Numbered from the stretch's first letter, positions 1,865 to 46,679 are shown. The stretch: DNA of 57,271 nucleotides from Actinomycetota bacterium (GCA_963169585.1 CAUJDU010000036.1:1-57271), one strand, 5' to 3'. The notes: generated from the sequence alone by a model not told the origin. Numbers and translations are program-made.

Positions 1865-1921
1865 AGGTATAGGTTACATTGTATTCTGTGTTTTCAGCCA
1901 AGAACTAATAGAATATTATTT

Positions 1922-3358: not shown

Positions 3359-3443
3359 TTAGTGAGATTCGCCTAGAGTTATGGGAGCTGTTTTAGTGGG
3401 GTAATCATTGGATTAACACCTATCGTACATAAAAAAGGAAAAA

Positions 3444-4289: not shown

Positions 4290-4291
4290 CA

Positions 4292-5170: not shown

Positions 5171-5175
5171 GTGTT

Positions 5176-6258: not shown

Positions 6259-6270
6259 AATATTTTCCTT

Positions 6271-7212: not shown

Positions 7213-7222
7213 ATCGAAAGAA

Positions 7223-8859: not shown

Positions 8860-8873
8860 ATGATTTTTATCGA

Positions 8874-9266: not shown

Positions 9267-9271
9267 GGTTG

Positions 9272-9322
9272 CATTCTACTCGGAGCTGCTTGCTGAAGCA
9301 AGCAGGGCGTTTGGTGTAGAAT
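9272..9322. promoter_or_regulatory. Nested palindrome in a 65-bp divergent promoter region
   Basis: cattctac (9272-9279) pairs with gtagaatg (9315-9322). Inside it, ctgcttgc-tgaa-gcaagcag (9286-9305) forms a second stem. Confidence 0.3.
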
Positions 9323-9331
9323 GTTCACCTT

Positions 9332-12300
9332 ATGGCAAATGTAAATAATACTGATGAGTCAAAAGTTTCAGCTAGTAAACAGGATGGTTCATTTGAGCGC
9401 GGAATTGCTGATTTTGCTTGGCCAACTGTTGTCGCTGTAATCGTTACTCATAACCCCGGCGAGTGGCTTGAGCAATGTTTGAGCTCTGTTGCAGCTCAAA
9501 ATTATCCAGATCTTACAACGCTCGTTGTCGATGTGGCATCTAAAGAAGATGTTACTGAGCGTGTAGCTAAAGCAATGCCTTCGGCATTCGTACGTAAAAT
9601 TGAAGAGGATATTAATTTTGCAGAGGCAGTCAACCTTTCTGTCCAATCTATTGAGGGTGCTACTTATGTTCTGATTTGTCACGATGACGTAGTTCTCGGA
9701 GCAAATGCGATTGAAGAAATGATTCAAGAAGCCTTCCTTTCCAATGCTTCTATAGTTGGTCCAAAAATTATTGATACTGAAAATAGAACTCAGCTTCTAG
9801 AAGTTGGTGGGATGATTGACCGATTTGGTGTTCCATTTAGTGGCATTGAGCCAGATGAAGTTGACCAAGGACAACACGATGGGGTTCGTGATGTATTTTA
9901 TGTTTCAAGTGCAGCGATGTTAGTGAGAGCAGATCTTTTCCGTGCATTAGGTGGATTTGATCCCGCTTGTTTCCCAGGCGCAGAAGATATAGATATTGCT
10001 TGGCGTGCGCATCTTGTAGGTGCACGTGTACTAGTCCAACCAGATGCGGTTGTCATGCACCATGAAACTTCTGATCGTCAGAAGAGGTTTCGTACCTCTA
10101 AAGCAGCAATCGTTGCTCGTCACCGAATGCGAGCAGTGTTAAAAAACTCTTCAAAGAGGTCGTTACTTTGGATACTTCCATTGGCATTTGTTTTACATAC
10201 GCTTGAAGGAATTGTGTGGTTAGTTCGGCTTAACCCTAAACGATCATGGCTTTTATTTTCTGGCTGGATCTGGAACCTCAGAAACATTCGAGATACGGTC
10301 AAAGAACGAAAACAAATCCAGAAAACAAGAGAAGTTTCTGACCGAGTTATTGCATCTCACCAAGTAGGAGGATCAGCAAGATTCCGGCGATTTGTTACCT
10401 CTGTGATTCAAAATCGTCAATTAAAGAAGTTTGCTTACATGTCAAAATCGATAGCAGCCACAAGCTATTCGAAGAGAACAAGGGAAACTCCAATATATTT
10501 AACTGCTTTAGCTGTCTATCTCGTTGCTGTGCGCTCACTATTTATTAATGGAATAACAAGCGTTGGTGAGTTTGTTACTTGGCCATCGTTTTCTGAACAA
10601 ATATCTTCTCTATTTACAGGTGGATTGCCAGCAGGAGAATATCCTATGTTGGCGTCAACATTCGGAAGAATTATTGCCCTGTTTGTAACTTTAATATTCG
10701 GTATGAGTGAAGGATTAGCTCAGACAGTATTTACTGTGTCGTTAATTCCAATAGGTTGTTTTGGTGTCCGATTACTATTGAAAGAACGTGCCGTAGGAAC
10801 TAGATCAGTTGCAATTGGGGCAGTTACCTATGGGATGCTCGCTTTTGGTTTGCAATCTTTTTACAATGGTGATTTTGGATCAATTGTGATGCTAGCTGGG
10901 TTACCTTACTTCTTAAGGGCTCTATCAAATCGGAAGGGAAGGCAAGCTGGTTTTGCGGCTGCAGTAATCATCGCCTTCTGTCCAGCGTCAATACCGGTAT
11001 TGGCACTTGTAGGAATAGCCTTCTTGATTTTGGCTGATCATAGCGAAAATGGTATTAGCTCTAACCTTCGCTCCAAAGTTAGAGTTTTGGCGTTAGCTTT
11101 GAGTTTAGCTCTGACTCTAAATATAGGACTTATATTTGATTTGGTAAGGAATTTTGATCGTAGCGCATTTGGAATTTCAGATACTACGTCAGAATTTTCT
11201 CAGTATCTTTTTGTGAACCTCAAGGTCACTATAGTCCTTTACTTGTCTTTAACGCTGATTGCTGTTGCTTTAATTGTCGCTAGGAGAGAACGTACTCATG
11301 AACTTAGGTTACTTGTACTTTCGGCGATATTACTTTTTGCATTGGTATCTGTCGCAATTCATTTTGCTCAACCAGTTTTCGAAGCTAGTGTACTTTTTGT
11401 TTTGCTTCAGCTTTGTGTTGCTATTTCCATAGGAGTTGTAATAAATGCGTTTGACGATGAATTGAAATTGAGATCATTTGGAATCCTTCACTTGCTTTCA
11501 GGGTTGAGCGCTTCGCTGGTTATAGTCAGTGTTGTTCTAGGAATAAGCGTCCTTCCAGATGGCAGATTCGGATTGCCAAGTCGAAGCTGGGAGAATCAGA
11601 TCGAAATAAGGGATAACGAACGAGTACTCTATCTTGGAGATTCTAGAAATATCCCTGGTCGAAGTATATTGGCACCTTTAAATAGAAGCTTTTCTGTTGG
11701 AGATAGTGCTTCTGTCACATTATCAAGGTCATTTGCGGGACCCGCATCTTCTCTGGATGAACAAATTCGTTCTATTTATTCGGCGATGATGTCCAGCGAA
11801 ACTTCGCATGCCGGCTATCTATTAGCAAGGTTAAGCATTGGAACTGTTGTAGTACCAAGCTCGAGAGCACCAGGGACAAGAACATTACCAGAAGACCAAC
11901 AGTTACTTAATGCGTTAGATCGCCAAACTGATCTTGTGAGGTTACGAGATCGTGAAGGACTAGCTGTATACAAAAGTACATCATTTGACAAAGGTTATCC
12001 GACAAATAAATACGTAGAAAATCTCGAACCAGCTCAAGTTTTTGAAAACCGATTTAATGAGACCAACGAAATTAAACTTTTTAAAGCTAATGAATTTCCA
12101 GCCTCTTCTATCTTGATAATCGCCATAACATCAGCAGGCCTAGTATTTTTACTGTTGTGGCCAAGGCGACAACAGCTATTGAGTACACGTTCCCTAGGTA
12201 TTTCAAGGAAATCATCACAGGCTTTGAATATGGCCGACGAACAAACACAAGCAATTTTGGATTTAAGTGATGAGATTCACGCTGAAGAAAACTCAAGTGA

Positions 12301-12343
12301 CAAAATTAACGAAGAAAATATTAATCGCAAGGTAAAATCATGA
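9332..12343 (+). CDS. GT2 glycosyltransferase fused to a large polytopic membrane domain
   Basis: N-terminal GT-A domain (VVAVIVTHNP..., GAEDIDIAWR DxD-type region) followed by more than 10 predicted TM helices; 1003 aa. Confidence 0.8.
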   Translation: MANVNNTDESKVSASKQDGSFERGIADFAWPTVVAVIVTHNPGEWLEQCLSSVAAQNYPDLTTLVVDVASKEDVTERVAKAMPSAFVRKIEEDINFAEAVNLSVQSIEGATYVLICHDDVVLGANAIEEMIQEAFLSNASIVGPKIIDTENRTQLLEVGGMIDRFGVPFSGIEPDEVDQGQHDGVRDVFYVSSAAMLVRADLFRALGGFDPACFPGAEDIDIAWRAHLVGARVLVQPDAVVMHHETSDRQKRFRTSKAAIVARHRMRAVLKNSSKRSLLWILPLAFVLHTLEGIVWLVRLNPKRSWLLFSGWIWNLRNIRDTVKERKQIQKTREVSDRVIASHQVGGSARFRRFVTSVIQNRQLKKFAYMSKSIAATSYSKRTRETPIYLTALAVYLVAVRSLFINGITSVGEFVTWPSFSEQISSLFTGGLPAGEYPMLASTFGRIIALFVTLIFGMSEGLAQTVFTVSLIPIGCFGVRLLLKERAVGTRSVAIGAVTYGMLAFGLQSFYNGDFGSIVMLAGLPYFLRALSNRKGRQAGFAAAVIIAFCPASIPVLALVGIAFLILADHSENGISSNLRSKVRVLALALSLALTLNIGLIFDLVRNFDRSAFGISDTTSEFSQYLFVNLKVTIVLYLSLTLIAVALIVARRERTHELRLLVLSAILLFALVSVAIHFAQPVFEASVLFVLLQLCVAISIGVVINAFDDELKLRSFGILHLLSGLSASLVIVSVVLGISVLPDGRFGLPSRSWENQIEIRDNERVLYLGDSRNIPGRSILAPLNRSFSVGDSASVTLSRSFAGPASSLDEQIRSIYSAMMSSETSHAGYLLARLSIGTVVVPSSRAPGTRTLPEDQQLLNALDRQTDLVRLRDREGLAVYKSTSFDKGYPTNKYVENLEPAQVFENRFNETNEIKLFKANEFPASSILIIAITSAGLVFLLLWPRRQQLLSTRSLGISRKSSQALNMADEQTQAILDLSDEIHAEENSSDKINEENINRKVKS

Positions 12344-17843: not shown

Positions 17844-20597
17844 ATGGCAATTCCAGAATCACTGACTTCAAAGACGATGGATAAGTGTAAAAACTACTTC
17901 CAAAAGACATCACATAAAGTTATTGAAAATCCTTTAGGTTCTTTACGAAACATTATTACATTTATTGGCGTCACATTTAGTGCGACCATTGTTTGGCTTA
18001 CGCTTCAACCAAGCCTAATTTTTTCTAGTACAACAGCTACGGGTGGAGACATGGGTGCGCATGTCTGGTGGCCAGCATTCATGCGAGACTACCTCTTGCC
18101 TAGCGGGCGAATATTCGGTTGGACAATGGATTTTTATTCAGGATTTCCAGTAGGACAATACTATTTCCCTGTGCCAGCTTTAATGGTGGTGATATTAGAC
18201 CTGATTTTGCCATATAACATAGCTTTTAAGATTGTTACTGTCCTTGGTTCTGTATTCTTTCCAGTTTCTGCATATTATCTTGGAAGGTGTATCAAAGCTG
18301 TTAAACCAATTCCGTTGATAATGGCTTTTGCAGCAACTGCATTCTTATTTTTCAATGGGGATCCTAGAGGTGGTTTAACCGGAACAACCCTTGCCAACTA
18401 CCAGAATGCGCAATTCAACCATAGGATAATGGGTGGGCCTTTGCTTAGCGCAATGGCTGGAGAGTTTTCATTTTCGATAGCACTAACATTTTCTCTCCTT
18501 TTCTTAGGGACATTTTTTGTTATGTTGCGAGAAGGCAAGTGGAGAGTTTGGGTAGCGGTGTTGTTAGCACTAACCATTATGAGCCACTTGGTTGTAGCTA
18601 TTTTTGCTGGATTTGCAGCATTAATTTTTTGGGGCGTTAGCTATGTCGTACGTAATGGTATATATCAAAAATTGGGTGGTCTATTAATCGTATGGGTATT
18701 AGCTTTAGCTTTTGGGATAGGGGTTGTTGCTAGATATTTTTTCGACAATAAACTTTCTGGTTCAACGTCTGAGATGGCTGCAGCCGTAATTTTGATTGGT
18801 GCTTCGATAGCTATTGCTGTAGTCCTGGCATTTGGGTATAGGAATAAAAGACTTCATGTTATTAATATTTTTAAAGATTCATTACCATTGATTTTTGGTT
18901 TAATGATTTCAAGTATTTGGCTCGTCCCTTTGCTTATGCGATTTGGGTATACCTCTAATATGCGATACGACAAACTCGTCGATTTGCCAGAAACAATTGG
19001 CGTCAACGAGGTGTTTCACCTATATATTGCACCTACATATTTTTGGTGGACAGTATTTTTACCCGCTGCGATAGGTTTTATTCTGTCGGCAACCTTTTTA
19101 CGCAAATCTATACTTCCAATATTGTTAACTGCTGTTGCAATGGCAATGGTTTTCATACAATGGCCAGAAGGTCATGCTTGGAACTTACGATTCTTGCCGT
19201 TTTGGTATATCTTTATTTTCTTTGTTGCAGCCTTTGGCTATGGTGAAGTACTCCGGCTCCCAACAGCATTTACCTCAAAGTTGGCGTATACAACTAAGAA
19301 CAGAGAGCTGTTGAGATTTAGTAGGTTGATTTCTGTAGGAATAAGCGTAATCCTTGTTGTAGGTTTCATAGTTGCTTTAATTGGTTTAGGCAAAGCACCT
19401 ATTGATTCTGCAACTGACTGCGCATCTTCGAATGACAATAGATTATTCCCAGATAGAAGAGGATTAGCCGGTGGCTGGGCAAGATATAACTTTGAAGGGA
19501 TAGAGCGTAAACCTCAAGATAATACCTGTAAAACTGAGAGATCTGATAAAGAAAATTATACATCTTCGCTCGAATTTAAATCTTTGATGGAAACAATGGA
19601 CTCTCTTGAATCTGGACGTGCACTTTGGGAACCGCACGATGGATCTTATGGTACAACCATTGCTTTGACTTTGTTGCCATATTTTACCAATCATAGAATT
19701 GCTTCTCAAGAAGGTCTCTATTATGAAGCAGCGGGTTCTACGGGCTATCACTTCTTAAATGTTGCTGAGTTATCTTTAACTCCATCTAACCCTATGCGCT
19801 GGCCAAAATGTAAAGCCGGTCCTGATGGAAATCTGATAGAAACAGATGATTGTTTTATAACTGATTATTCGAATATGTCAGAGTTCGATAGGGGAGTAAA
19901 GCATCTACAAATGATGGGTGTACGATACTTTATGGCACATTCCAAGGAAGCCAAAGAAGCAGCCGCGAATCATCCAGATCTTGAACTTGTTGCTAGCGTC
20001 GCCGATCGGGATGGATTCAATCCTGTAGGTTGGGAAATCTTCGAGGTTAAAAACCATGACTTGGTTGAAGCATTAGATATTGAACCTGTTGTCATCAAAG
20101 ACAAAATAGATTCACATTATTGGACCCAAAGTGGAAACAAATGGTTACACACCTGGTTTAATGCTCCAGGCCAATATCCAGTGTTTACCAATGGTGGTCC
20201 TAGCCAATGGGAAAGAAAAACTGCAAAGCAAGCTTTAGCTAATCCAATAGGTGCTGATAAAGAAATCACAAAATCTAATGTGAAAGTTTCTGACATAGAA
20301 CTCAGCCAAGACAAGATTTCTTTTCATGTCGACAAAATCGGTGAACCTGTGCTGGTAAAAGTTTCCTATTACCCAACATTTAAAGCTTCAGGTGCTGGTG
20401 AAATATATCGTGCGAGTCCTAACTTTATGGTTGTGATACCGAATTCAAACGATGTAACTCTTGAAATTAAGAGAGATAACGTCGAATGGCTGTCGATATT
20501 GCTATTTTTGCTGGGTATTGCAGGTTGTGTCGGTATGAAAGTTGCTGAGAAAAGGAAAATTCGCCACCTATCGGATTTGCTCGGCCCGAAACGTTAG
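17844..20597 (+). CDS. Large polytopic membrane protein with a C-terminal extracytoplasmic domain, possibly a GT-C-type glycosyltransferase
   Basis: 917 aa, more than 12 predicted TM helices, GGDMGAHVWW motif in the first loop, soluble ~350-aa domain, terminal TM anchor. Confidence 0.7.
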   Translation: MAIPESLTSKTMDKCKNYFQKTSHKVIENPLGSLRNIITFIGVTFSATIVWLTLQPSLIFSSTTATGGDMGAHVWWPAFMRDYLLPSGRIFGWTMDFYSGFPVGQYYFPVPALMVVILDLILPYNIAFKIVTVLGSVFFPVSAYYLGRCIKAVKPIPLIMAFAATAFLFFNGDPRGGLTGTTLANYQNAQFNHRIMGGPLLSAMAGEFSFSIALTFSLLFLGTFFVMLREGKWRVWVAVLLALTIMSHLVVAIFAGFAALIFWGVSYVVRNGIYQKLGGLLIVWVLALAFGIGVVARYFFDNKLSGSTSEMAAAVILIGASIAIAVVLAFGYRNKRLHVINIFKDSLPLIFGLMISSIWLVPLLMRFGYTSNMRYDKLVDLPETIGVNEVFHLYIAPTYFWWTVFLPAAIGFILSATFLRKSILPILLTAVAMAMVFIQWPEGHAWNLRFLPFWYIFIFFVAAFGYGEVLRLPTAFTSKLAYTTKNRELLRFSRLISVGISVILVVGFIVALIGLGKAPIDSATDCASSNDNRLFPDRRGLAGGWARYNFEGIERKPQDNTCKTERSDKENYTSSLEFKSLMETMDSLESGRALWEPHDGSYGTTIALTLLPYFTNHRIASQEGLYYEAAGSTGYHFLNVAELSLTPSNPMRWPKCKAGPDGNLIETDDCFITDYSNMSEFDRGVKHLQMMGVRYFMAHSKEAKEAAANHPDLELVASVADRDGFNPVGWEIFEVKNHDLVEALDIEPVVIKDKIDSHYWTQSGNKWLHTWFNAPGQYPVFTNGGPSQWERKTAKQALANPIGADKEITKSNVKVSDIELSQDKISFHVDKIGEPVLVKVSYYPTFKASGAGEIYRASPNFMVVIPNSNDVTLEIKRDNVEWLSILLFLLGIAGCVGMKVAEKRKIRHLSDLLGPKR

Positions 20598-35112: not shown

Positions 35113-37197
35113 CTATTTGAGTATTGAGAGAATATCCGTATATTCGTCTGTCCAAGGTTTAACCTTGCGAAAATCGTGGTTTCGTTTAACACTGCTAAAA
35201 GGCTTTTGATTAAGTAAATTCTTATCTCTAGTAAGTATTGCCCATTTCGCAGGTTCAGAGTTACCAATTATATTTACGTCATCCACAATATATACGAGGT
35301 ATGAATAGCCTTCTTTTTCTGCAATAGAAGCTATCACCGAGCGTAATTCCAGTCGATTACTTGAGATGTGCAGGAGGATAATTCCATTCGGATCTTTCAA
35401 ATTCTTTTCGTAGATTTTTAATGCTTCAGCAGTTAATAAATGTGTAGGTGCAGAGTCTCCATTAAATGCATCCAAAATAATGAGGTCGTATTTTTTAGCT
35501 TTCGGGTCTTTTAGCCTTTCTTGCATAAGAAGCCGACCATCACCGATGTTCACATGTGTATCTTCACACTTGTCTAAATATGTAAAGTATTTCTTTGCCG
35601 ACTTAGCAACGGTTTCACTAATTTCGTAATAATCATATGAATCTTTACCCTTGCACATACTAGATAGTTCACCAGCTCCCAGACCTAAAACAGCAACATC
35701 AATTTTTTCATTTTTTGCTCGTTCTCTTACATGCTCAAAAGAAGAGCTCAACGCTGAATTATCTAATGAAAAGTAAGGGCTAAGTTCATACTGGCGATCA
35801 GGATCTAGATGCTGGTTTCCTTGGACGACATGATTGTTGATCATTGATCTATAGTTATTTTGTTCTTTTACTTTTGTAACAACATAGAAATCTCTTTCTT
35901 GGAAAATTATGCCTTTATTGTCAGCGAATAAAAGAGTAAAAGATAGAAGTGCGATGAATGATATTGATGCACTTAGCATGGAAATATTTTTAACCTTAGT
36001 CGTCTTGTCTGATAAATAATTTTGGAATATGTAGAAAAGTAGGAATATCAGTGTAATTAAAATCCCAATTCGAAATTCGTAGATATCATTGAAAATAATC
36101 GGAGGGATAAGACTGGCAAAAAGTGTACCTAGTGCGCCACCCAATGAAGTAAACAAATAGAAAAAGGAGGACTTTTCCTTTGCTGGCCGAGAGGCATAAA
36201 GTTGGGAATGAAAGAAAAAGCCGAGCATAAAGAGTAAGAATACATATGAAGTTATTGTAAAAACTGCGCCTTGGTTGTTGAGCAACGACGAGATAGAGGC
36301 AGCAATAGCACAGGCTAAGAGTAATAATGAAGTATTATTAATTTTAATTCCGGTAAATGCGATGATGTAAGAAAGTAGATAAGCGCAAAGTGGGATTACC
36401 CAGAGCAATGGTATGGCCGTAATCTTCTGTGTAATTTCAGCTGTAGTTGCTACAAGCATAAATGTTGGTATCGATGAAAAGAGTAACCATTTTGTTATGG
36501 GGTAGTCCTTTATCTTTATTTTCAGAGGATGTTCTTCTTTAGCTTCATTAACTTTTGTAAGGATCGATAGTCGATAGCTAATGATAAGTGAAATGATTGT
36601 GAAAACAACGAAAAATACTGACCAAATTAGCTCTTGATTTTTTAATGTTGTCATTCTTTCGAATATGAAAGGGTAACTTAACAGTGCGAGTAGCGAGCCA
36701 ACATTTGAAATAGCGTAGAGCTTGTAGGGTTCTTTAGAGTTTGTTTTGGTAAACCAATGTTGAAACAAAGGTGATGTTGAACAAAGTAGCGTATATGGCA
36801 ACCCTACGCTTAGGAGTAATGTGGAAAGTACTGCAACTGAAGGATTCAGAGTCGTAGTTGATGTCCATTCGAGCGGGATCGATAGTGAATCGCGTTGGTA
36901 TATTGAGTAGATAACAAATATCAGACTAAGAACTGTTAAGGATGAGTGGATATAGATCTGTTTTATTGTAGAGATCTTGCCTAGGAAATATACGTAAGCA
37001 TAACCAACAAATAGCAGTGTGGAATAAAACATTAAGCTGGTTGTCCATACAGAAGAAGTCCCTCCAAACCAGGGCAGGAGATTTTTTGAGATAATAGGCT
37101 GGATTTGAAAGACCAAAAAAGCGCTCAGAAAAATTGCTAAAGCATAGAAATTTAGAAATATTGATTTATTAGATCTTTTTTGTAGGGAGGTCTTCAT
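35113..37197 (-). CDS. Polytopic membrane protein fused to a spermidine synthase-like (SpeE-fold) methyltransferase-type domain
   Basis: ~430 aa with many TM helices, then VAVLGLGAGE...DLIILDAFNGDSAPTHL. Lower GC than its neighbours by my hand counts. Confidence 0.75.
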   Translation of the reverse strand: MKTSLQKRSNKSIFLNFYALAIFLSAFLVFQIQPIISKNLLPWFGGTSSVWTTSLMFYSTLLFVGYAYVYFLGKISTIKQIYIHSSLTVLSLIFVIYSIYQRDSLSIPLEWTSTTTLNPSVAVLSTLLLSVGLPYTLLCSTSPLFQHWFTKTNSKEPYKLYAISNVGSLLALLSYPFIFERMTTLKNQELIWSVFFVVFTIISLIISYRLSILTKVNEAKEEHPLKIKIKDYPITKWLLFSSIPTFMLVATTAEITQKITAIPLLWVIPLCAYLLSYIIAFTGIKINNTSLLLLACAIAASISSLLNNQGAVFTITSYVFLLFMLGFFFHSQLYASRPAKEKSSFFYLFTSLGGALGTLFASLIPPIIFNDIYEFRIGILITLIFLLFYIFQNYLSDKTTKVKNISMLSASISFIALLSFTLLFADNKGIIFQERDFYVVTKVKEQNNYRSMINNHVVQGNQHLDPDRQYELSPYFSLDNSALSSSFEHVRERAKNEKIDVAVLGLGAGELSSMCKGKDSYDYYEISETVAKSAKKYFTYLDKCEDTHVNIGDGRLLMQERLKDPKAKKYDLIILDAFNGDSAPTHLLTAEALKIYEKNLKDPNGIILLHISSNRLELRSVIASIAEKEGYSYLVYIVDDVNIIGNSEPAKWAILTRDKNLLNQKPFSSVKRNHDFRKVKPWTDEYTDILSILK

Positions 37198-37325: not shown

Positions 37326-37690
37326 TGGTGGAGGTGGGGGGTATCGAAACCCCCGTCCCTTGAGCCCTTTCATGAGCCTTCTCCGAGCGCAGTGTCTGGA
37401 AAGTTTTCGAATATCTGGGCGCCAGTCACACGCATCCAAATACCTAGTTAACTAAATATGTCCTCGTAAGTAGCTAACGCCTTACGGAGCAAGCACCGTA
37501 GTTGAACCCAGTGCGGCGACGGTGCCTGCCGCTTTGGGCACTGCTTAAAACTAATTAAGCAGCTAGTGCGTAGTTGGAGCTTTCGCTCTCATCTGTTGCA
37601 TTTATTATGTTTACAGACTCTTTAACGACAGTCTGCAACGTCGGCTCGCTTCTCTCACGGCTAAGTACAAGGTCGAAACCAAGCACCCCC
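37326..37690 (-). ncRNA. ssrA: tmRNA (SsrA)
   Basis: 5' GGGGGTGCTTGGTTTCGACC and 3' GGGGGTTTCGATACCCCCCACCTCCACCA on the minus strand. Tag ORF GCA...GCT GCT TAA (37599-37555) encodes ATDESESSNYALAA. Lies adjacent to smpB. Confidence 0.9.
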
Positions 37691-37730
37691 GCAGGTATAT
37701 TGTACCTCGACGTGTCAAGTTATTTTTACT

Positions 37731-37811
37731 GGGGGTTGAACCCTACAAAAGGAACAAAACGCGACATGGGAATCATATGTGTTTTTATCCCTTTTGTAGG
37801 GTTCAACCCCC
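37731..37811. repeat. Palindromic ~80-nt repeat element, copy B (perfect 22-bp arms)
   Basis: GGGGGTTGAACCCTACAAAAGG (37731-37752) is perfectly complementary to 37790-37811. Lies between the smpB stop and the ssrA 5' end. Confidence 0.85.
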
Positions 37812-37819
37812 AGTGGTGT

Positions 37820-38311
37820 TTAGCGGTTTCGCTGTTTAAGCGCACGTGCGATATCGCGGTTTGCATCACGTTTTTTAATATCGTCGCGCTTATCGTATTG
37901 TTTCTTTCCTCGGCCAACACCAATTGTCACTTTTACCATTCCTCGTACAAAATCGAGTCGAATAGGAATCAGTGTTACTCCACGTTCTTCTAGATGTTTA
38001 GACATCTCAAGGATTTCTTTTTTATGAGCTAATAAAACCCTGCTTCGATCTGGATCTACTTCTCCACGAGAAAATTCATAAGGTTTGATATGCATTCCAT
38101 ATAAAGTCAATTGATCACCGTCGGTTCTAGCAAAAGCTTCATCTATGGAAACATGTTTTAACCGCAAAGATTTTACTTCTGGTCCAAGTAAACTAATTCC
38201 ACATTGGTAAGTTTCTAGAATATGGAAATCGCGTTTCGCTTTCCTATTAGTTGCAATTAGGCCATCACCTCGACGTTGCTCAGGTGTTTGTTCTTTAGTC
38301 ATAGCCAACAC
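37820..38311 (-). CDS. smpB: SsrA-binding protein SmpB
   Basis: Typical SmpB sequence (IATNRKAKRDF...GISLLGPEVKSLR...) with a basic C-terminal tail. Confidence 0.95.
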   Translation of the reverse strand: MLAMTKEQTPEQRRGDGLIATNRKAKRDFHILETYQCGISLLGPEVKSLRLKHVSIDEAFARTDGDQLTLYGMHIKPYEFSRGEVDPDRSRVLLAHKKEILEMSKHLEERGVTLIPIRLDFVRGMVKVTIGVGRGKKQYDKRDDIKKRDANRDIARALKQRNR

Positions 38312-38361: not shown

Positions 38362-38787
38362 ATGGCATGGACAATCTCCCAAGAATCCCATAAAAAAATG
38401 GTGCATGCTTGTATAGATGGATTTCCTCTTGAGGCTTGTGGGCTTTTCTTAGGATCTTTGGATCATGATGGTAAACCAACAGGTGAAATAAGTTTCGTAT
38501 ATCCGGCTAATAACTCAGAACAGTCAGCTCGAATTTATTCGATTAATACCAGAGATATGTTTGAGGCAACTAGGTTTGCTGATGAGAATGGTTGGGAAAT
38601 AATTGGTGCATACCATTCTCATACGCACACACAAGCTTATCCATCGCCTACAGATATAGAAAAAGCTGTTGATCCAAATTGGTGTTATGCGATCGTTTCG
38701 CTTAGTAAAGAAAAAGTTGAATCAAATTTTTTTCAAATTATTAATGGTGAAGTAAAAGAGTTGGATGTCGAATTAGTCATCCCTTGA
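38362..38787 (+). CDS. mec: JAMM/MPN+ metalloprotease (Mec-like CysO-processing hydrolase)
   Basis: E...HSHTHTQAYPSPTD JAMM motif; cysO-cysM context. Confidence 0.85.
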   Translation: MAWTISQESHKKMVHACIDGFPLEACGLFLGSLDHDGKPTGEISFVYPANNSEQSARIYSINTRDMFEATRFADENGWEIIGAYHSHTHTQAYPSPTDIEKAVDPNWCYAIVSLSKEKVESNFFQIINGEVKELDVELVIP

Positions 38788-39486
38788 AACAGAGATTCCT
38801 TCTCCAATAACTACTTCACCAGGTCCAACATCTTCTATATTGCCCTGTGTAGATGTACTTTGTATCTCTGGTGTACTAGGTGTAGATTCACCCGCAACAA
38901 AGACTCGTTGCACTTGTATAGCATCGCCAACATCAACCAAGACCTCTTTAGTCGTAACTGGAGCTGTTGTTGGAACTGGTAGGGTAGTTGTAACAATTTC
39001 AACATTGGCTCGAGATTTTGTATCAACCTTTGGATTTTGTACTTGTGCTGTACTGGCAACGGTTAGTGTTGCTGCTAATAACGTTCCAGCAGCAACCATA
39101 GATGCTGGAACAAGTACTCGTCCTTTTTTGATCATTTGGATGAATCGATGAGTTTGTAGATCGTCGCAGTGCATTAACCTAGCTAGCCGCTCGGCGATAG
39201 CTGTTTCATCCATTTCGAATGCATTAGCTAAGGCAAGTACATCTTCTTTACGAAGTGGAATGACACCGGTCGGTTGAGAACGGAGTTCGTAGACCATAGA
39301 CAGATATGTTGATAATACGAGTGAAACATCTCCACTGACGTCAATTGGACGTGTTGTTTCTCCCGCGCTCATTACACCAGTAGCGACGTCAACAGTTACA
39401 GGGATTCTTGGTCCCCATGGAGATTCGCTATCCTGCCCGTTTCCCTTATCGATATCCATTACGTTCTTTTTCGACCGTTTTTTCAT
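38773..39486 (-). CDS. Hypothetical single-pass membrane protein with a Thr/Pro/Val-rich extracytoplasmic tail
   Basis: 237-aa ORF with one TM helix (VLVPASMVAAGTLLAATLTVAS). Its 3' end overlaps mec by 15 nt. Confidence 0.45.
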   Translation of the reverse strand: MKKRSKKNVMDIDKGNGQDSESPWGPRIPVTVDVATGVMSAGETTRPIDVSGDVSLVLSTYLSMVYELRSQPTGVIPLRKEDVLALANAFEMDETAIAERLARLMHCDDLQTHRFIQMIKKGRVLVPASMVAAGTLLAATLTVASTAQVQNPKVDTKSRANVEIVTTTLPVPTTAPVTTKEVLVDVGDAIQVQRVFVAGESTPSTPEIQSTSTQGNIEDVGPGEVVIGEGISVSRDD

Positions 39487-39576: not shown

Positions 39577-39858
39577 ATGCCAATAACAGTAAGAATTCCC
39601 TCTGTAATGCGAGCAAATACAGCCACTAAGGCAACTGTCGAATGTGAAGGCAATACCGTTGGAGAGGTAATTGCGGACCTTGTAAGACAACATAAAGACA
39701 TTGGCGATGTGCTATTTGATGGGGATAATAACCTCCATAAGTACGTAAATATGTATTTAGAGTCTGATGATATCCGTTATATTGGCGGACTTGAAGCTCC
39801 GATCGGCACAGCTAAAGAATTGACGATCTTACCTGCTGTTGCTGGTGGCTTCGTTTAA
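39577..39858 (+). CDS. cysO: ThiS/MoaD-fold sulfur carrier protein CysO, with a GG-FV C-terminus
   Basis: 93-aa beta-grasp-like sequence ending ...LPAVAGGFV*; immediately upstream of cysM. Confidence 0.8.
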   Translation: MPITVRIPSVMRANTATKATVECEGNTVGEVIADLVRQHKDIGDVLFDGDNNLHKYVNMYLESDDIRYIGGLEAPIGTAKELTILPAVAGGFV

Positions 39859-39875: not shown

Positions 39876-40811
39876 ATGAAAGTCGAATCGGTTTTAGATC
39901 TAATTGGTAATACGCCAATGGTAGGAATCCATTCGATTTCTCCAAACAAAAACGTCAAAATATATTTGAAACTTGAAGGACAAAATCCTGTCGGTAGTTC
40001 TAAAGATCGAGTTGCACTTTCTATGATTTTGGATGCAGAAAATAAAGGTATCTTGAAACCTGGAAACACGATTGTTGAACCATCAAGTGGGAACACCGGA
40101 GTTGGTCTAGCACTAGTTTCGATTTTGAAAGGCTACAAACTCGTAGTTGTGTGTGCAGAAAATGTAACGCAAGAGAGAAAAGATTTATTAAGATCTTTTG
40201 GAGCAAAAATAGAATTTTCGCCCGGTAATCTTGGCAGTAATGGTGCTATTGCTAGGGCAAAGGAATTAGCAGAACAAAACCCTGATTGGGTAATGCTCTA
40301 TCAATATGGGAATGAATCTAATCCTGTAACCCATGTGAATGCTACTGCACCGGAAATTCTTAGAGACTGCCCAGAAATAGATGTTTTTGTTGCAGGACTT
40401 GGTACTTCAGGCACACTAATGGGATGCTCTAGATATTTTAAAGAACATAATCCAGATGTGAAAATTGTTGCGGTTGAACCTCCTGCAGGGGAAAGTGTTT
40501 CTGGACTACGATCTTTAGAAGACGGTTTCGTGCCCGAAATATTTCAAGCAGATCTAATCGATCGAAAATTTATGATAAAAAATGATGAATCAATCGAAGT
40601 TACGCGTTGTCTTTTAAGCGAATGTGGTCTTTTTGTTGGTGTATCAACTGGCGCTATCGTGGCAGGAGCAATAAAACAAGCGCAGTCGATGGAACAGGGT
40701 ACTATCGTTGCGATTTCTCCTGATTCGGGTTGGAAGTATTTATCCGCTGGAATTTGGGCTAACAGAATTGAAGAAGTAATTGAAGAATCCAAATCAACTA
40801 ACTTTTGGTAA
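39876..40811 (+). CDS. cysM: Cysteine synthase B-type (CysO-thiocarboxylate-dependent, CysM)
   Basis: NPVGSSKDR PLP-lysine motif, GNTG, 311 aa. Confidence 0.9.
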   Translation: MKVESVLDLIGNTPMVGIHSISPNKNVKIYLKLEGQNPVGSSKDRVALSMILDAENKGILKPGNTIVEPSSGNTGVGLALVSILKGYKLVVVCAENVTQERKDLLRSFGAKIEFSPGNLGSNGAIARAKELAEQNPDWVMLYQYGNESNPVTHVNATAPEILRDCPEIDVFVAGLGTSGTLMGCSRYFKEHNPDVKIVAVEPPAGESVSGLRSLEDGFVPEIFQADLIDRKFMIKNDESIEVTRCLLSECGLFVGVSTGAIVAGAIKQAQSMEQGTIVAISPDSGWKYLSAGIWANRIEEVIEESKSTNFW

Positions 40812-40815
40812 ACCC

Positions 40816-41781
40816 ATGATCACAGATGATATCGAGATGTGTATTAACGCATTAACACAAGGTGAATTAGTAGCTTTTCCTACAGAAACTGTTTATGGGT
40901 TGGGTGCAAGAGCTGATTTTCCTAGTGCAATCGCAAAAATTTTTAAGCTAAAGGGTAGGCCAACAGACCATCCGCTTATTATGCATTGTGCAAGCATTGA
41001 TGTCGCACTTGCTATTTCACCTTATGTGCCAGATTATGCAAAAAAGCTTGCTAGCGAATTTTGGCCAGGGCCGATGACTTTGATTTTTAAACGTGGAGCA
41101 AATGATGCAATCTGTGATGAAGCAGTCGGAGGTAACGATAGCGTGGCTATTCGTGTTCCATCTAATGAGATTGCTCGTGAACTTCTTTCCAGTTGTACTT
41201 TTTTCGTGGCAGCACCTTCGGCTAATAAATTTTCAAAAGTTTCATCTACAACATCTGCACATGTTCAAGAGCAATTTGATGATGAACTAATTATTCTTGA
41301 TGGCGAGCAATCAAGCTATGGTTTAGAATCGACGATTATCTCTTGTATCGATGAAACTCCGGCAATCTTACGCACAGGTGCGATTACAAAAAATGAGATA
41401 CAAAATATACTTGGGGTAGAGGTTGAAGATAAAAGCACAAGTTCAGAGATTAAAGTCTCAGGTAATAAACAAATCCATTATTCTCCAAATATTCCACTCT
41501 TCCTTGTTGATAATGATGAACAAATTTCTAGTTTTACTAATTTTGACACACAAGAATGTGCTTATATCGGAGGCCGTGAAACACAACTGGAATTCAAGTT
41601 CCCCTTAGTGGTTTTAAACTATGAACTTTATGCCCATGAACTCTATGATTTCTTCCATAGAGCACAAGACCAAGGCTGTAAGGCGATATTTGCGGTTCCT
41701 CCAGAAGCGCAAGGAATTGGTATTGCAATTAATGACCGATTAAAAAAAGCATCAAGCCAGTGGGAGAAGAACGGTGGATAG
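40816..41781 (+). CDS. L-threonylcarbamoyladenylate synthase, Sua5/YwlC type with C-terminal Sua5 domain
   Basis: VAFPTETVYGLGA, HPLIMH, SANKFS motifs. ATG lies 5 nt after the cysM stop (ORF open from TTG 40780). Confidence 0.85.
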   Translation: MITDDIEMCINALTQGELVAFPTETVYGLGARADFPSAIAKIFKLKGRPTDHPLIMHCASIDVALAISPYVPDYAKKLASEFWPGPMTLIFKRGANDAICDEAVGGNDSVAIRVPSNEIARELLSSCTFFVAAPSANKFSKVSSTTSAHVQEQFDDELIILDGEQSSYGLESTIISCIDETPAILRTGAITKNEIQNILGVEVEDKSTSSEIKVSGNKQIHYSPNIPLFLVDNDEQISSFTNFDTQECAYIGGRETQLEFKFPLVVLNYELYAHELYDFFHRAQDQGCKAIFAVPPEAQGIGIAINDRLKKASSQWEKNGG

Positions 41782-44425
41782 TTTTTCAACTAGAGAAACA
41801 TTTACAATACTCACACCTCAAATTAGTTGGGGAGAAGATTCACTACTTCTCAAAGTTAGCTATAGCTGTGAAGAATTTCAATTTGAAGAGACATTTAAAT
41901 ACTCTTTCCCTGCGTTCGTTCGGAAGTTTGATGAGCGTGAAGTTAACCTTGCCGCTCAATTCGTGAGCTTGGCAGCTGCGCCAAGCTATTACAAAGCAAT
42001 GTTGGCAAAAAATATAGAATGTGAGTTCGACTTAACTCAAGAACAAATAGATTTTATGCGAGGATTGCTAGGCCCAGGTCTTGGAGAGTTTAGATTTCAA
42101 AACAATATTGAGCTAACTAGCCAACCAAACCTAGAGTCGTTAGTACGTGGTGAAATACAAGAAATTCCAGGATCTTTAGATAGCAATTTTGCCGTAGTTC
42201 CAATTGGTGGAGGTAAAGATTCAGCAACTTCACTAGAAATCGTTAAACGAACTGGTATGGATGTTGTTGGTTTCAGTGTCGGCAATTTTGAAGCTATAAA
42301 CAGATGTGCGAAAATTGCCCAAGTTGAAATGATTCATGTTGAAAGAAAAATAGATCGGGAGCTTATTGAGCTAAATAATCAAGGTTTTCCTAACGGGCAT
42401 GTTCCAGTTACTGCACTTACGTCTGCGTTGGCGATACTTGCTGGTGTAGTTGTGAATGCTGGAAAAGTCGTTATGTCAAACGAATCTTCAGCTAATGAAG
42501 AAACAAGAACTGTTAATGGTTATGAGGTGAATCACCAGTGGTCGAAATCTAGCCAAGCAGAAATGCTTATTAGAGATGCTATTTTTTCTTTAGGAATAAG
42601 AGTCGATTATTTTTCTGCATTAAGAAATTTAAGTGAGTACGAAATATTTTCACTTTTCGCAAATTTCAATGCTTATCACTCTGTATTTACAAGCTGCAAT
42701 CGCGTTTTCAAAATTGATACGACAAAGAGGTCGAAAACCTGGTGTTGCGATTGTGATAAATGTCGATTTGTATTTCTCGGTCTAAGCGCATATTTAGGAA
42801 TAGATCACGTTGCAAAACTTATCGGTGCGAACTTGTTTGACGACTTATCTCAATTACAAGGGTTCAAAGACCTGATAGGAATAGATGATTTAAAACCTTT
42901 TGAATGTGTGGGAACTGTACGAGAATCAAGAATGCTTGCACGAAACTGTTTGGAACTCGATGACGCACGCAGTACCCCAGTAGGTATAGAACTTGCAAAT
43001 ATATTGGATTCTCTTAGCGAGTTAGAAGAAACAATTCCTGTTCCAAAACCGATAAGTTTTGTCGATGAGGGTATCGTCGAGTCCATTTCAGATTTACAAA
43101 CTCAGGCTTATAGGTCGAGGCTCAGCGCTGAGCTAAAAGATAAAAGTATTGCAATTGTAGGTTTGGGCAGAGATACAAGTTCGATAATTAGGTTTTTAAA
43201 AACTAATGCAGCAAAAACAGATTTCAAAGTATTTCTCCCAAATAATCCAGATCTCACCAAGCCAGAATTTGGAGCTATTTTAAAAGACAACGCTCTAGAA
43301 GCCGATGAAAGCCAGGTTACTCTTGTAGAAAAAATCGAAGATTTAGATTCAGATATTATTTTCGTCAGTCCAGGTATATCTAAATATAGCGAACTTGTTA
43401 GGTCTTTGGGTTCGCGTGCAACCACACCGTTAGCTTGGTGGCTTGAATATAATAAAAAAGCCTTACGTAATAAATGTTTTATAGGTGTAACTGGTACGAA
43501 AGGTAAAAGTACAACAGCTTCACTTTTGGCACATATTTTGCCTAATTCGATTGTTGCAGGAAACCTAGGTTTTGCAGTTGGGAATATCTCTATTCGGGAT
43601 TTGTTTGAATGTGATTTTTGTATCTTGGAGGTCTCTAGCTTCCAGGCTAGCTATGTGCAAAAATCTCCAGATGTTGTTGCTATTACTTCTTTGTTTGATT
43701 GTCATATCGATTGGCATCGTACAAGTGAAAATTATAGATCCGATAAATTGAACTTGGCTCTACATGGGGCTAGCGAATTAGTTGTTTCAGACACTATTGA
43801 CGACTTCGCTCCGATGCTTGCAGACTTACGAAAAGTTCAGATTAATAATAATCGGACTGATGTGATTACGCTTGTTCCAAGTTCAGGTAGATCATTGTTG
43901 CAAAGAAATCAAGAAGTTGTTCGAGCTATCGCTGCATTGGTGTCACCATCACTTTCGAGTACGGATATAGATGAGAGCTTCGATTCTTTTGCCGAGTTGA
44001 AACATCGCCAAGAAATAATTTCTAGGAAGAACGAAATTATCTATGTCTCTGATGTGTTAAGTACTGCACCTGGTGCTGTTTTAACAGCGGTAGATGATTT
44101 TATTTTGCGATATCCAAATGTTCATATTTTTTTGTTGCTAGGTGGGGCAGATAGGCAAGTGGATCAAAGCGAATTGATTCACGGGCTTAATGCTCGTAAA
44201 GACAAAGTTTTATCGATTTGTTTACCCGAAACTGGGCATATGGTTGAAAGCCGCTTGGAAAATAAAGTTCATTGTGATGAGCTGGTAGATGGGGTTAAAT
44301 ACACGCTTGGTAAAGCCCAGCCTGGAGATATTGTGCTGCTTGCCCCTGGCGCACCGAGCTTTCATCGTTATGGGAATTATGAAGAGCTGGCTAATCATTT
44401 TGCGAGGATTGTAGATTCTCTCTAA
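41774..44425 (+). CDS. Fusion protein: N-terminal PP-loop ATPase-like domain (putative MurL-type UDP-MurNAc-L-Ala-L-Glu epimerase) plus C-terminal MurD-type ligase (putative MurD2)
   Basis: Residues 145-150 GGGKDS. Cys cluster WCCDCDKC at 323-330. The Mur ligase half starts at ~455 (IAIVGLGRDTSS) with GVTGTKGKST at 571-580. The GTG start overlaps the Sua5 gene by 8 nt. Confidence 0.65.
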   Translation: MDSFSTRETFTILTPQISWGEDSLLLKVSYSCEEFQFEETFKYSFPAFVRKFDEREVNLAAQFVSLAAAPSYYKAMLAKNIECEFDLTQEQIDFMRGLLGPGLGEFRFQNNIELTSQPNLESLVRGEIQEIPGSLDSNFAVVPIGGGKDSATSLEIVKRTGMDVVGFSVGNFEAINRCAKIAQVEMIHVERKIDRELIELNNQGFPNGHVPVTALTSALAILAGVVVNAGKVVMSNESSANEETRTVNGYEVNHQWSKSSQAEMLIRDAIFSLGIRVDYFSALRNLSEYEIFSLFANFNAYHSVFTSCNRVFKIDTTKRSKTWCCDCDKCRFVFLGLSAYLGIDHVAKLIGANLFDDLSQLQGFKDLIGIDDLKPFECVGTVRESRMLARNCLELDDARSTPVGIELANILDSLSELEETIPVPKPISFVDEGIVESISDLQTQAYRSRLSAELKDKSIAIVGLGRDTSSIIRFLKTNAAKTDFKVFLPNNPDLTKPEFGAILKDNALEADESQVTLVEKIEDLDSDIIFVSPGISKYSELVRSLGSRATTPLAWWLEYNKKALRNKCFIGVTGTKGKSTTASLLAHILPNSIVAGNLGFAVGNISIRDLFECDFCILEVSSFQASYVQKSPDVVAITSLFDCHIDWHRTSENYRSDKLNLALHGASELVVSDTIDDFAPMLADLRKVQINNNRTDVITLVPSSGRSLLQRNQEVVRAIAALVSPSLSSTDIDESFDSFAELKHRQEIISRKNEIIYVSDVLSTAPGAVLTAVDDFILRYPNVHIFLLLGGADRQVDQSELIHGLNARKDKVLSICLPETGHMVESRLENKVHCDELVDGVKYTLGKAQPGDIVLLAPGAPSFHRYGNYEELANHFARIVDSL

Positions 44426-44439
44426 TACAAACATTAGAG

Positions 44440-44468
44440 TTGACAGAGTATTATACATGCTGTATAGT
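44440..44468 (+). promoter_or_regulatory. Near-consensus sigma-70-type promoter with embedded palindrome (likely PadR autoregulation site)
   Basis: TTGACA (44440-44445), 17 nt, TATAGT (44463-44468). TATACA-tgc-TGTATA palindrome at 44452-44466. The padR ATG is at 44479. Confidence 0.5.
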
Positions 44469-44478
44469 ACAGGGTGTT

Positions 44479-44865
44479 ATGAAGAAGTCTTATGAAGAAA
44501 AAGTGCTATCTAACTGGGAAAGCGTCTACCAGCAAGGGTTGCTAACCTTTTGGGTTTTCGTTGCCCTGAATGAAAAACAACTTGTTGTCTCCGAGATAAA
44601 GCAACGAGTAAGTGAGCTAACTAATGGGACATATAACACTTCCGAGCAAGCCTTATACCGAAGTCTGAGAAAGTTTTATGAACTTGAGCTAGTCGATTAC
44701 AAAGAAGTAGATAATGATCTAGGTCCGAAAAAGAAATTGTATTCATTATCTAAAACTGGCTTAGAAATCCTGAAGGAATTTTCTGAAAGGAACATAAGGC
44801 TATTTTCACAGCCAGAAGTCCAACAACTTATCAATAACGAAAAGGAATATGATGAAACTAACTAG
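44479..44865 (+). CDS. PadR family transcriptional regulator
   Basis: Winged-helix PadR pattern (LLTFWVFVAL...YNTSEQALYRSLRKFYELELV); ORF open from 44440. Confidence 0.85.
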   Translation: MKKSYEEKVLSNWESVYQQGLLTFWVFVALNEKQLVVSEIKQRVSELTNGTYNTSEQALYRSLRKFYELELVDYKEVDNDLGPKKKLYSLSKTGLEILKEFSERNIRLFSQPEVQQLINNEKEYDETN

Positions 44866-45277
44866 AAACCTAAAGGTATATACCGCATTTATCATACTGG
44901 TGAGTACTATTTTCTACGTGATGACCATGCTCGATGTAGGCACAAATACAACCGAAAATTCCGATGGTACTACTACTATTACTTCGTCGATCCCACTCTA
45001 TTGGTTTGCAACGGTGTTTATTGCCTTTTTACTTTTCTATTTTACTGACAAGAAACGTGACAGTAGATCGAACCTAGGGCTTGCGTATCACATCGTAACA
45101 ACAGCAGTTGTCCTGTTGCCGTTAGCAATATTCTCTATTTACAGCATAATTAGCAAAGGAATGCTTGACTATTTCGTATTAGTGCCAATGGGGGCATTGA
45201 TCATTAGCCTATTAATCCATTGGATAGCTACTCGCCGCGACTTAAAAGGTTTTGAAAGTAAAAAAGTTTTTAAATAG
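44849..45277 (+). CDS. Hypothetical 4-TM membrane protein, PadR-associated
   Basis: Overlaps padR by 17 nt; hydrophobic 142-aa ORF. Confidence 0.55.
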   Translation: MMKLTRNLKVYTAFIILVSTIFYVMTMLDVGTNTTENSDGTTTITSSIPLYWFATVFIAFLLFYFTDKKRDSRSNLGLAYHIVTTAVVLLPLAIFSIYSIISKGMLDYFVLVPMGALIISLLIHWIATRRDLKGFESKKVFK

Positions 45278-45337: not shown

Positions 45338-46087
45338 ATGACAAGACATGATAATAGGACCCCAGAACAACTTCGAGTGATAAGTTTTGAGCGTGACTAT
45401 ACAAAATACGCTCTAGGTTCTGTTCTCGTAACATTTGGGAATACAAAAGTATTATGTACAGCTTCAATGGAGCCAGATGTTCCTAGGTGGCTTAAAGATT
45501 CAGATAAAGGTTGGGTAACAGCGGAATATTCTATGCTCCCAGGCTCGTCGCCTCAAAGAGTGAATCGTGAAGCAACAAAAGGAAAACAATCTGGTCGTAC
45601 GCAAGAAATTCAAAGGTTAATAGGTAGATCGTTGCGAGGGGTGACAGATCTAACTCTTATGCCTGGTATTTCAATTACTCTAGATTGTGATGTTCTTCAA
45701 GCTGATGGTGGTACTCGAACAGCTTCGATATGTGGAAGCTATGTGGCTCTCCATGATGCATTTACCCGATTGGTTCAAGCAAATGTACTTAGTCTTAATC
45801 CTCTAACTGCGCAATGTGCTGCACTTTCTGTCGGAATTGTCGATGGGGTTCCTGTTGCAGACCTTGATTATCCAGAAGATTCAACTGCACAAGTAGATAT
45901 GAATGTTGTAATGTCAGATTCCAGACTTATTGAAGTTCAAGGTACGGCAGAAGGAATGGCATTTTCTCGTACGGAACTAGATGTTCTTTTAGAGTTGGCT
46001 GAAAATGGTATTAAACAAATCATGGAATTGCAAAATGAAATTCTTAGTGTTGCTCCTGCTCCTAGAAAAATAAATACTAATGCCTAA
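45338..46087 (+). CDS. rph: Ribonuclease PH
   Basis: Typical RNase PH sequence ([17 protein letters not shown]...[15 protein letters not shown]...). Confidence 0.95.
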
Positions 46088-46679
46088 GTTTTTACTCGCA
46101 ACTCATAATCTAGACAAAGTTAAAGAAATTGAAGCTATATTTAAAGATGCACTTGGTGAAGATATTGAATTTGTATCTGGTATCGACCCTGGAGAAGTAA
46201 TTGAAGATGGCGATACCATAGAAGAAAATTCGATGATCAAAGCCAATGCTTGGTTAGATATAAATCCCGATTGCATAGTTCTAAGCGATGACACCGGATT
46301 GTTTATCGATGCGCTGGATGGGGCTCCAGGAAAAGATGCATCAATTTATGCCGGGCAAAATGCTACCTATCAAGAGAATTGCATCAAGTTATTAAACGAA
46401 ATGAAGGGTAAAGAAAACCGCAAAGCACGTTTTTCTACTTGTGCAACAGCTGTTCGAGTTAATTCGCTCTCGATTGTTAGCGTAGGCAGTATAGAAGGCC
46501 ATATTTCTCATGAACTAGATGGTGCGGATGGTTTTGGCTATGACCCAGTTTTCATCCCCGGTCCAGATATCGCTGGCGCTAGCTTTGCCCAAATGACCCC
46601 AGCTCAAAAAAATATGGTTTCACACCGTGCTAAGGCATTCCGTTCACTCGCACGTGGAGTGAAAGAAGCCGGCTGGTAA
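46080..46679 (+). CDS. rdgB: Non-canonical purine NTP pyrophosphatase (RdgB/Ham1)
   Basis: DDTGL..., [14 protein letters not shown] motifs; overlaps rph by 8 nt. Confidence 0.9.

Follow-up and report, generated by a model that had tools for sequence, protein, structure and literature searches.

An alternative route to D-glutamate, consisting of MurL (XOO_1319) and MurD2 (XOO_1320), was reportedly described for Xanthomonas oryzae by Feng et al. in 2017. The MurL/MurD2 route has been reviewed including the orthologues from Micromonospora and Salinispora (PMC8788868, PMC5808125), and it has been reported for the Xanthomonadales, a few Alphaproteobacteria and the Micromonosporaceae. The published MurL/MurD2 organisms are devoid of D-Glu-forming genes, and MurL has been found to use ATP and to release AMP; an adenylation of the L-Glu alpha-carboxylate before the inversion was proposed by the authors (PMC8788868). 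In a review from 2021, MurL was said to have no recognisable domains. Here, we describe a gene of an Actinomycetota bacterium that encodes a MurL half and a MurD2-type ligase half in one protein. It is located at 41774-44425 on the plus strand of a DNA stretch of 57,271 nucleotides (GCA_963169585.1, CAUJDU010000036.1:1-57271), the whole of which is called the window in the following. With a probability of roughly 0.8, and by analogy to the published split enzymes, this one polypeptide performs the two reactions by which peptidoglycan D-glutamate is made in the MurD2/MurL pathway. The protein represents a fused form of the known two-enzyme pathway and not a new system. It has both protein families and the presumed chemistry in common with the X. 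oryzae pair, whereas the fusion consists of a single polypeptide with a joining helix, carries Cys643 instead of Glu197 of MurD2, and belongs to a low-GC Acidimicrobiia lineage outside the published MurL/MurD2 taxa. Fused enzymes of peptidoglycan precursor synthesis are not without precedent, the chlamydial MurC-Ddl and the bifunctional MurE/MurF (NCBIfam NF008896) being two examples. In these proteins enzymes of one pathway are likewise fused, but the partners differ, an epimerase is not included and a racemase is still needed. In agreement with the initial annotation of this DNA, which knew of no experimental work on such a fusion, no description of it was found in the literature searched, although the original JACS 2017 paper or its supplement might mention fusions. 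Two reviews by the discoverers of MurL/MurD2 mention neither the fusion nor Acidimicrobiia or Patescibacteria.

The gene corresponds to a real open reading frame (ORF) of 883 amino acids, which starts with GTG, ends with the stop codon at 44423-44425 and is uninterrupted. It is the only long frame at this place; the opposite strand contains many stops, and the window as a whole is AT-rich with approximately 39.5% G+C. The Shine-Dalgarno-like run GGGAGAAG is situated directly 5' of the GTG, and the start of the fusion overlaps with the stop of the upstream gene sua5 by 8 nucleotides, which suggests that its translation is coupled to that of sua5. Not only the frame but also the motifs named in the initial annotation were found at the predicted residues, i.e., GGGKDS at 145-150, WCCDCDKC at 323-330, IAIVGLGRD at 459-467 and GVTGTKGKST at 571-580. 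Profile matches and the AlphaFold2 model divide the predicted MurL epimerase-MurD2 L-Glu ligase (41774..44425) into a MurL half comprising residues 1-445 (41774..43108), and a MurD2-type ligase half comprising residues 457-883 (43142..44422). The full-length protein was modelled by AlphaFold2 with a predicted local distance difference test (pLDDT) of 92.4 and a predicted template modelling score (pTM) of 0.91. The junction of the halves appears as one confident helix of residues 432-454 (43067..43135, pLDDT >90); lower model confidence was obtained for the ligase region 671-700.

The proposed resemblance of the N-terminal half to MurL was confirmed by profile comparison. Residues 46-387 match positions 46-388 of the 447 positions of the MurL profile NF041275 with E=1e-83 and 281 bits. 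This score is below the equivalog cut-off of 700 bits, which is tuned to Xanthomonadales. Likewise below it are the Micromonospora MurL with 395 bits and a fused, dcw-located proteobacterial homologue with 458 bits, and a MurL of Lysobacterales reaches 765 bits, from which the window MurL is distant. MurL and MurD2 have been confirmed in vitro in the genus Micromonospora (PMC8788868). A local Pfam-A search of the N-terminal half did not return a MurL family match, and homologues of the protein bear the precomputed domains MurL_N (PF26299) and MurL_epimerase_C (PF26298) alongside Mur ligase domains. Residue conservation was inspected in an alignment of 76 full-length fused homologues and, separately, in one that combined the MurL half of the window protein and 40 MurL proteins that stand alone (41 in total). 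The PP-loop PIGGGKDS (residues 143-150, 42200..42223) represents the predicted nucleotide site of the ATP pyrophosphatase type. Its residues G146-G147-K148-D149 are invariant among the 76 fused homologues, G145 and S150 are nearly so, and the entire GGGKDS motif is invariant in the 41 mostly stand-alone MurL proteins. The following cysteine cluster C308...C324-x2-C327-x2-C330 (42695..42763) is conserved in at least 90% of the fused proteins and invariant in the 41 MurL sequences; C325 of the WCCDCDKC motif is not conserved. Moreover, the segment KPFECVGTVRE (residues 374-384, 42893..42925) contains P375, C378, V379 and E384, which are invariant columns in both alignments, and the window protein also keeps the other invariant MurL columns, R191, H209, E237/S239, N253-H254-Q255, K258 and R284. 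Every residue of the MurL family that is invariant, or conserved to at least 90%, in these two alignments is present in the window protein, which implies that its MurL half acts on the same substrate. Judged from their conservation, C378 and E384 are candidates for the catalytic acid/base of the epimerisation.

The structural comparison places MurL among the PP-loop ATP pyrophosphatases. When the N-terminal half was modelled alone, a pLDDT of 95.3 was obtained, and Foldseek returned QatC, QueC and Cap9 as nearest folds (probability 1.00) followed by TtuA and MnmA, all of which are PP-loop ATP pyrophosphatases. For the MurL core, the template modelling scores (TM-scores) on target length amounted to 0.38-0.44 with QatC (E=1e-5), 0.61-0.67 with QueC from Bacillus subtilis (E=6e-4) and 0.63 with Cap9, with Foldseek E-values ranging from 1e-5 to 7e-4 over these three proteins. 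In addition, the MurL family profile matched the PP-loop of TtuA PH0300 with E=0.0023. A PP-loop of the SGGxDS type, the fold and the four cysteines following it are thus all present, as in the QueC-like branch of PP-loop ATP pyrophosphatases; a solved MurL structure was not found by the PDB sequence search. In QueC-type enzymes, a carboxylate is activated by formation of an acyl-adenylate, and the nucleotide-binding domain is followed by a metal site rich in Cys. A QueC-like, carboxylate-adenylating fold fits the AMP formation reported for MurL and the adenylation proposed for it, and, by analogy to QueC, the four-Cys cluster probably serves as a structural metal site. The fold, the SGGxDS-type PP-loop and the Cys cluster after the nucleotide-binding domain are shared with QueC, QatC and Cap9 (PDB 3BL5, 9Y01/9Y02, 9NTO), but there is no detectable common sequence family outside the PP-loop region. 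Furthermore, the N-terminal part 1-125 and the C-terminal helical part 340-445 of MurL are absent from these proteins. The substrates differ as well, and the presumed outcome of the MurL reaction is epimerisation and hydrolysis, in contrast to the amide or nitrile formation by QueC, QatC and Cap9.

The C-terminal half clearly belongs to the Mur ligases. It contains the Pfam domains MurD_N, Mur_ligase_M and Mur_ligase_C, its residues 459-880 match the murD model TIGR01087 with E=6e-56, among PDB sequences it matches MurD proteins best (E down to 5e-24), and Foldseek superimposed it on MurD structures with TM-scores on target length reaching 0.79. Canonical MurD (E. coli, PDB 1UAG/2JFF and others) has the three-domain fold of Mur ligases and the catalytic residues in common with it. 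The residues K578, E619, H644, K658, R745 and D760 are invariant and correspond to E. coli MurD K115, E157, H183, K198, R302 and D317, with K578 being located in the Mur ligase P-loop VTGTKGKSTT (43487..43516), which is invariant in the 76 fused proteins and in 72 split MurD2 proteins. The latter served as comparison set and are encoded in GTDB genomes near murL, mostly directly adjoining it. Real MurD2 proteins encoded next to murL in Micromonospora (locus L037) and Lysobacterales (locus L080) reach 290-339 bits on TIGR01087, i.e., they exceed its cut-off of 211.95 bits, hence this cut-off alone does not discriminate between both types. A profile of the ligase half gave 272 bits for E. coli MurD and 225-472 bits for MurD2 proteins. 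Because it cannot separate MurD2 from MurD either, the argument for MurD2 rests on the residues that determine specificity. The positions D182, K348, A414 and L416 of E. coli MurD are replaced by E197, R358, P433 and F435 in X. oryzae MurD2, whose double mutation E197D/R358K turns the enzyme to D-Glu, and the mutation K319T makes E. coli MurD accept L-Glu (PMC8788868). These positions were mapped using E. coli MurD from NC_000913, taking into account that the literature numbering omits Met1.

At four of these five marker positions the window protein is of the MurD2 type. The position of K319 is occupied by L762 (44057..44059); here, split MurD2 proteins have I, L or F and the fused proteins I (58 of 76), L (15) or N (3), and lysine never occurs in either set. 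R794 (44153..44155) corresponds to K348 of MurD and R358 of MurD2, a position with R in 70 out of 70 split and 72 out of 76 fused proteins. The triplet P861-S862-F863 (44354..44362) aligns with E. coli A414-S415-L416 and with P433 and F435 of MurD2; P is found in 66 split and 60 fused proteins at the first position, and Y or F in both sets at the last one. The ligase half therefore shares R, P and F as well as the missing K319 lysine with X. oryzae MurD2. The exception is C643 in the sequence D642-C643-H644 (43697..43705), which stands at the position of MurD D182 and MurD2 E197. This position is filled by E (66) or D (6) in the 72 split MurD2 proteins, and by E (53), C (14), D (8) or A (1) in the 76 fused ones. 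Where canonical MurD has D182, K319, K348, A414 and L416, the window ligase carries C, L, R, P and F, respectively. The exchange of the first three pocket residues, together with a TIGR01087 score below the cut-off, distinguishes it from canonical MurD. The initial assignment of the C-terminal half to MurD2 rather than MurD is hence supported with regard to the MurD fold and four MurD2-type residues, but it does not hold at Cys643, where MurD2 has Glu.

In the proposed reaction sequence, the ligase half would first add L-glutamate to UDP-MurNAc-L-Ala with conversion of ATP to ADP. The MurL half would then bind a second ATP at its PP-loop and adenylate the alpha-carboxylate of the terminal L-Glu, C-alpha would be inverted and the adenylate hydrolysed, and the epimerised product would finally be used by MurE as usual. 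The assignment is based on domain identities, residue conservation, fold and synteny, while the two reactions and the AMP formation are carried over from the published split enzymes and would be the same in the fused enzyme. A channelling of the intermediate from the ligase to the epimerase might be imagined. Several findings weigh against the two-step function. The NF041275 score of the window MurL is the lowest among those compared, and the ligase half is divergent, with 190.5 bits under the TIGR01087 cut-off. C643 at the MurD2 E197 position occurs in all 14 members of the clade to which the window protein belongs and is confined to them. Finally, the 57 kb seen are a portion of the genome, the rest of which could encode murI, a canonical murD or a D-amino-acid aminotransferase. 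D642, directly before C643, likewise occurs throughout the clade (14 out of 14) and might make up for the loss of Glu. It could be argued that the ligase specificity has changed, leading to a non-standard stem, in which position 2 is taken for example by a modified residue, or to a product outside of peptidoglycan. The clade-wide Cys in place of the Glu that determines stereospecificity, the low TIGR01087 score and the less confident model of the ligase region 671-700 could be explained in this way. However, T764, R794, S862 and F863 of the Glu site as well as all catalytic residues match MurD2, the MurL half keeps every invariant residue, and the gene is situated in the murI slot, which make such a deviating product very improbable.

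The genomic position provides further evidence that the fusion substitutes for the glutamate racemase. In Mycobacterium tuberculosis, rph is presumably Rv1340. The numbering of this species with cysO as Rv1335, cysM as Rv1336 and murI as Rv1338 was confirmed in the literature (PMC3976341). In the window, the Pfam-assigned genes mec (JAB, 38362-38787), cysO (ThiS, 39577-39858), cysM (PALP, 39876-40811) and sua5/tsaC (40780-41781) precede the fusion on the same strand. It is followed, also on the plus strand, by a PadR regulator gene (44440-44865), a gene for a small hydrophobic and probably membrane-spanning protein (44849-45277), rph encoding RNase PH (45338-46087) and rdgB (Ham1, 46080-46679), where PadR, rph and rdgB were again assigned by Pfam and the hydrophobic protein was recognised by eye from several hydrophobic stretches. 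The two genes before rph had initially been annotated as a PadR pair, which has to be corrected, since the second one has no PadR match. An Asp_Glu_race (murI) domain is absent among the window ORFs scanned or matched by synteny, and another Mur ligase was not found within the window. The gene order of the window recurs in relatives, namely the loci L001 and L002 (71% identity), L003 (50%) and L087 (45%). The insertion of the PadR and membrane protein genes between fusion and rph is shared by the window, L001 (12704-13505) and L002, and it is absent from L003 and L087.

The occupation of the murI slot was tested with the window RNase PH as query, the matches of which split into the fused clade with 80-88% identity and a second group with at most 71%. 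In three members of the second group, all of them sister Acidimicrobiales with 67-71% G+C, an Asp_Glu_race (murI) gene lies between cysM and rph. The order in one of them (L090) is smpB, mec, cysO, cysM, Asp_Glu_race (murI), a gene for a metallo-beta-lactamase-fold protein (MBL), rph and rdgB, and the other two (L089 and L088) are close variants; the MBL gene follows murI in two of the three sister loci, with no MBL gene being called there in L088. The upstream mec-cysO-cysM block was also found in L001, L003 and L087 as well as in the sister loci L089 and L090. In the fused clade with its 37-41% G+C, i.e., in L001, L002, L003, L087 and the window, sua5 and the fusion are located between cysM and rph. 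They stand exactly where the sister lineages have murI and the MBL gene, and the murI slot postulated in the initial annotation is thereby verified in four loci and the window. Canonical MurD is encoded in the dcw cluster and paired with MurI, whereas the fusion is encoded in the murI slot of a locus without racemase gene. All loci of the fused clade also have a conserved ORF of 228-237 amino acids without family match, which is situated between mec and cysO on the opposite strand (38773-39486 on the minus strand of the window) and is not present in the sister locus L090.

Alternatively, the fusion could be an accessory or conditional enzyme in a cell that makes D-Glu by murI or a D-amino-acid aminotransferase and uses a canonical dcw murD encoded elsewhere. 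The restriction of the analysis to 57 kb leaves room for such a redundant route, and a class IV aminotransferase domain does exist in the window at 44-1864 on the minus strand. The fusion partner of this domain, however, is a PabB-like domain that binds chorismate, indicating PabB-PabC rather than a D-amino-acid aminotransferase. Moreover, the window, L001, L002, L003 and L087 have no murI at the ancestral position, where it is kept in the three sister lineages, the published MurL/MurD2 organisms do not have D-Glu-forming genes, and a small, low-GC genome (approximately 39%) would be unlikely to keep two routes. Taken together, a redundant route appears improbable. In the low-GC Acidimicrobiia clade the fusion probably replaces the racemase, and with it the need for a pool of free D-Glu; murI and canonical murD would then be absent from the remaining genome as well. 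It is rather unlikely, but conceivable, that in abundant low-GC planktonic Acidimicrobiia the fusion fully replaces both the racemase and the dcw MurD, channels the L-Glu intermediate, binds its substrate in a Cys643/Asp642 pocket and operates without any free D-Glu. The class IV aminotransferase domain was rejected as D-Glu source. The corresponding ORF encodes 606 amino acids with the only such domain in the window, and it is probably a fusion of PabB and PabC (aminodeoxychorismate synthase/lyase).

Fused MurL-MurD2 proteins are not rare. With the whole protein as query, 817 proteins were obtained at E<=1e-10, and nearly all of the best 120 have 810-930 amino acids with MurL and ligase domains. 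The fusion occurs in more than 100 database clusters and several separate clades, and the sources named among the best 120 are Acidimicrobiia, Proteobacteria, Xanthomonadales, Saccharibacteria/Patescibacteria and Bacteroidales. The MurL half, used as query in an exhaustive search, yielded 2,145 clusters at 50% identity, among them taxa such as Acidimicrobiia, Thermoleophilia, some mycobacteria, Patescibacteria and Bacteroidales. Among the 150 best MurL clusters, about a dozen are fused and the rest are stand-alone proteins of approximately 430-470 amino acids. When genome contigs were scanned with a MurL alignment, the best 80 GTDB loci listed were all split, reached at most 41% identity and did not include the window's own lineage. 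A gene for a MurD2-type ligase was found within 10 kb of murL in 72 of these 80 loci, mostly directly adjoining. The usual split order is murL followed by murD2 on the same strand, abutting or overlapping, and this order is also the one in the fusion. Exceptions exist. In Micromonosporaceae, the pair is divergent with murD2 upstream on the other strand (L026, L028, L037, L046, L051, L055-L060, L063, L064, L068, L072 and L084), and in the Saccharibacteria loci L007 and L049 murD2 precedes murL, the reverse of the order almost everywhere else.

In a neighbour-joining tree of the MurL halves, the fused proteins fall into about 13 groups, and the 14-member clade including the window protein is monophyletic. 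Since the tree is built on crude distances over deep divergences, it supports several fusions but not the exact number of 13. The fusion probably happened several times independently, which is easy to picture because murL and murD2 abut or overlap. The same arrangement could also raise the suspicion that the protein is an artefact, in which a single-base error in sequencing or assembly has merged adjacent murL and murD2 genes. This explanation is practically negligible in view of the 14 clade members, which were assembled independently (ENA, JGI, NCBI and Logan) and show the same uninterrupted architecture with a conserved linker helix, the more than 100 fused clusters in other phyla, and the confident helix modelled at the junction.

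Fused and split genes are found at different chromosomal positions. In a proteobacterial metagenome-assembled genome (P0026, L086 8001-10520, Logan SRR8075952), a fused MurL-MurD2 gene lies between mraY and ftsW in a complete dcw cluster with the order mraZ-rsmH-ftsI-murE/F-mraY-fusion-ftsW-murG-murC-murB. Hence, it occupies the murD position, and a fused protein can serve as housekeeping ligase. In Galbitalea sp. SE-J8 (Microbacteriaceae), rph-rdgB is directly preceded by a split murL-murD2 pair (L045, 9278-13845). The gene before this pair encodes the N-terminal domain of a nicotinate phosphoribosyltransferase and is presumably pncB. Here, murL-murD2 occupies the actinobacterial murI position for a second time and independently. 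The assumption that MurL/MurD2 genes always reside in the murI slot was rejected, because the copies in Mycolicibacterium arenosum, where rib genes and uvrC flank the pair, in the proteobacterial dcw cluster and in Saccharibacteria, where a contig bears the fusion outside the murI slot, are found elsewhere.

These results widen the view on the MurD2/MurL route, which with about 2,100 clusters at 50% identity is much more widely distributed than reported. In several lineages the two enzymes became one protein, which is encoded in the murI or the murD slot, and the locus in the window is a clean example of a gene that takes over the chromosomal site of a functionally equivalent but non-homologous gene. 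Furthermore, a systematic mis-annotation became apparent, since fused and split presumed L-Glu ligases are called D-glutamate ligase or MurD ligase in the sources; the name D-glutamate ligase results from the fact that real MurD2 proteins exceed the murD equivalog cut-off. The confidently modelled single-chain protein could be useful for studies on the MurL mechanism, with mutagenesis directed at the PP-loop fold resembling that of QueC, at the four-Cys site and at the invariant Cys378. Regarding drug development, racemase inhibitors would miss organisms of this type, while inhibitors of MurL/MurD2 would reach more taxa than assumed.

Some other features of the window are worth mentioning. A cell-envelope glycopolymer cluster extends over 1814-12343 and includes genes for LytR-CpsA-Psr, an RmlD-like reductase and GT2 glycosyltransferases (one of 1003 amino acids), a nucleotidyl transferase and a member of the NAD-dependent epimerase/dehydratase family. 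It is interrupted by the F420 genes cofE and cofD (7223-8859, minus strand). An ORF of 917 amino acids (17844-20597, plus strand) without Pfam or NCBIfam match adjoins phosphomannomutase and phosphoglucose isomerase-like genes. The tmRNA gene was located at 37326-37690 on the minus strand; the listed ORF 37574-37993 on the plus strand overlaps with it and is probably spurious. Finally, an ORF of 694 amino acids with a weak match to the family of fused MFS/spermidine synthases is located on the minus strand at 35113-37197 between a TetR gene and the tmRNA gene. As L001, L003 and L087 have no similarly sized gene there, this ORF has the appearance of an insertion beside ssrA-smpB.

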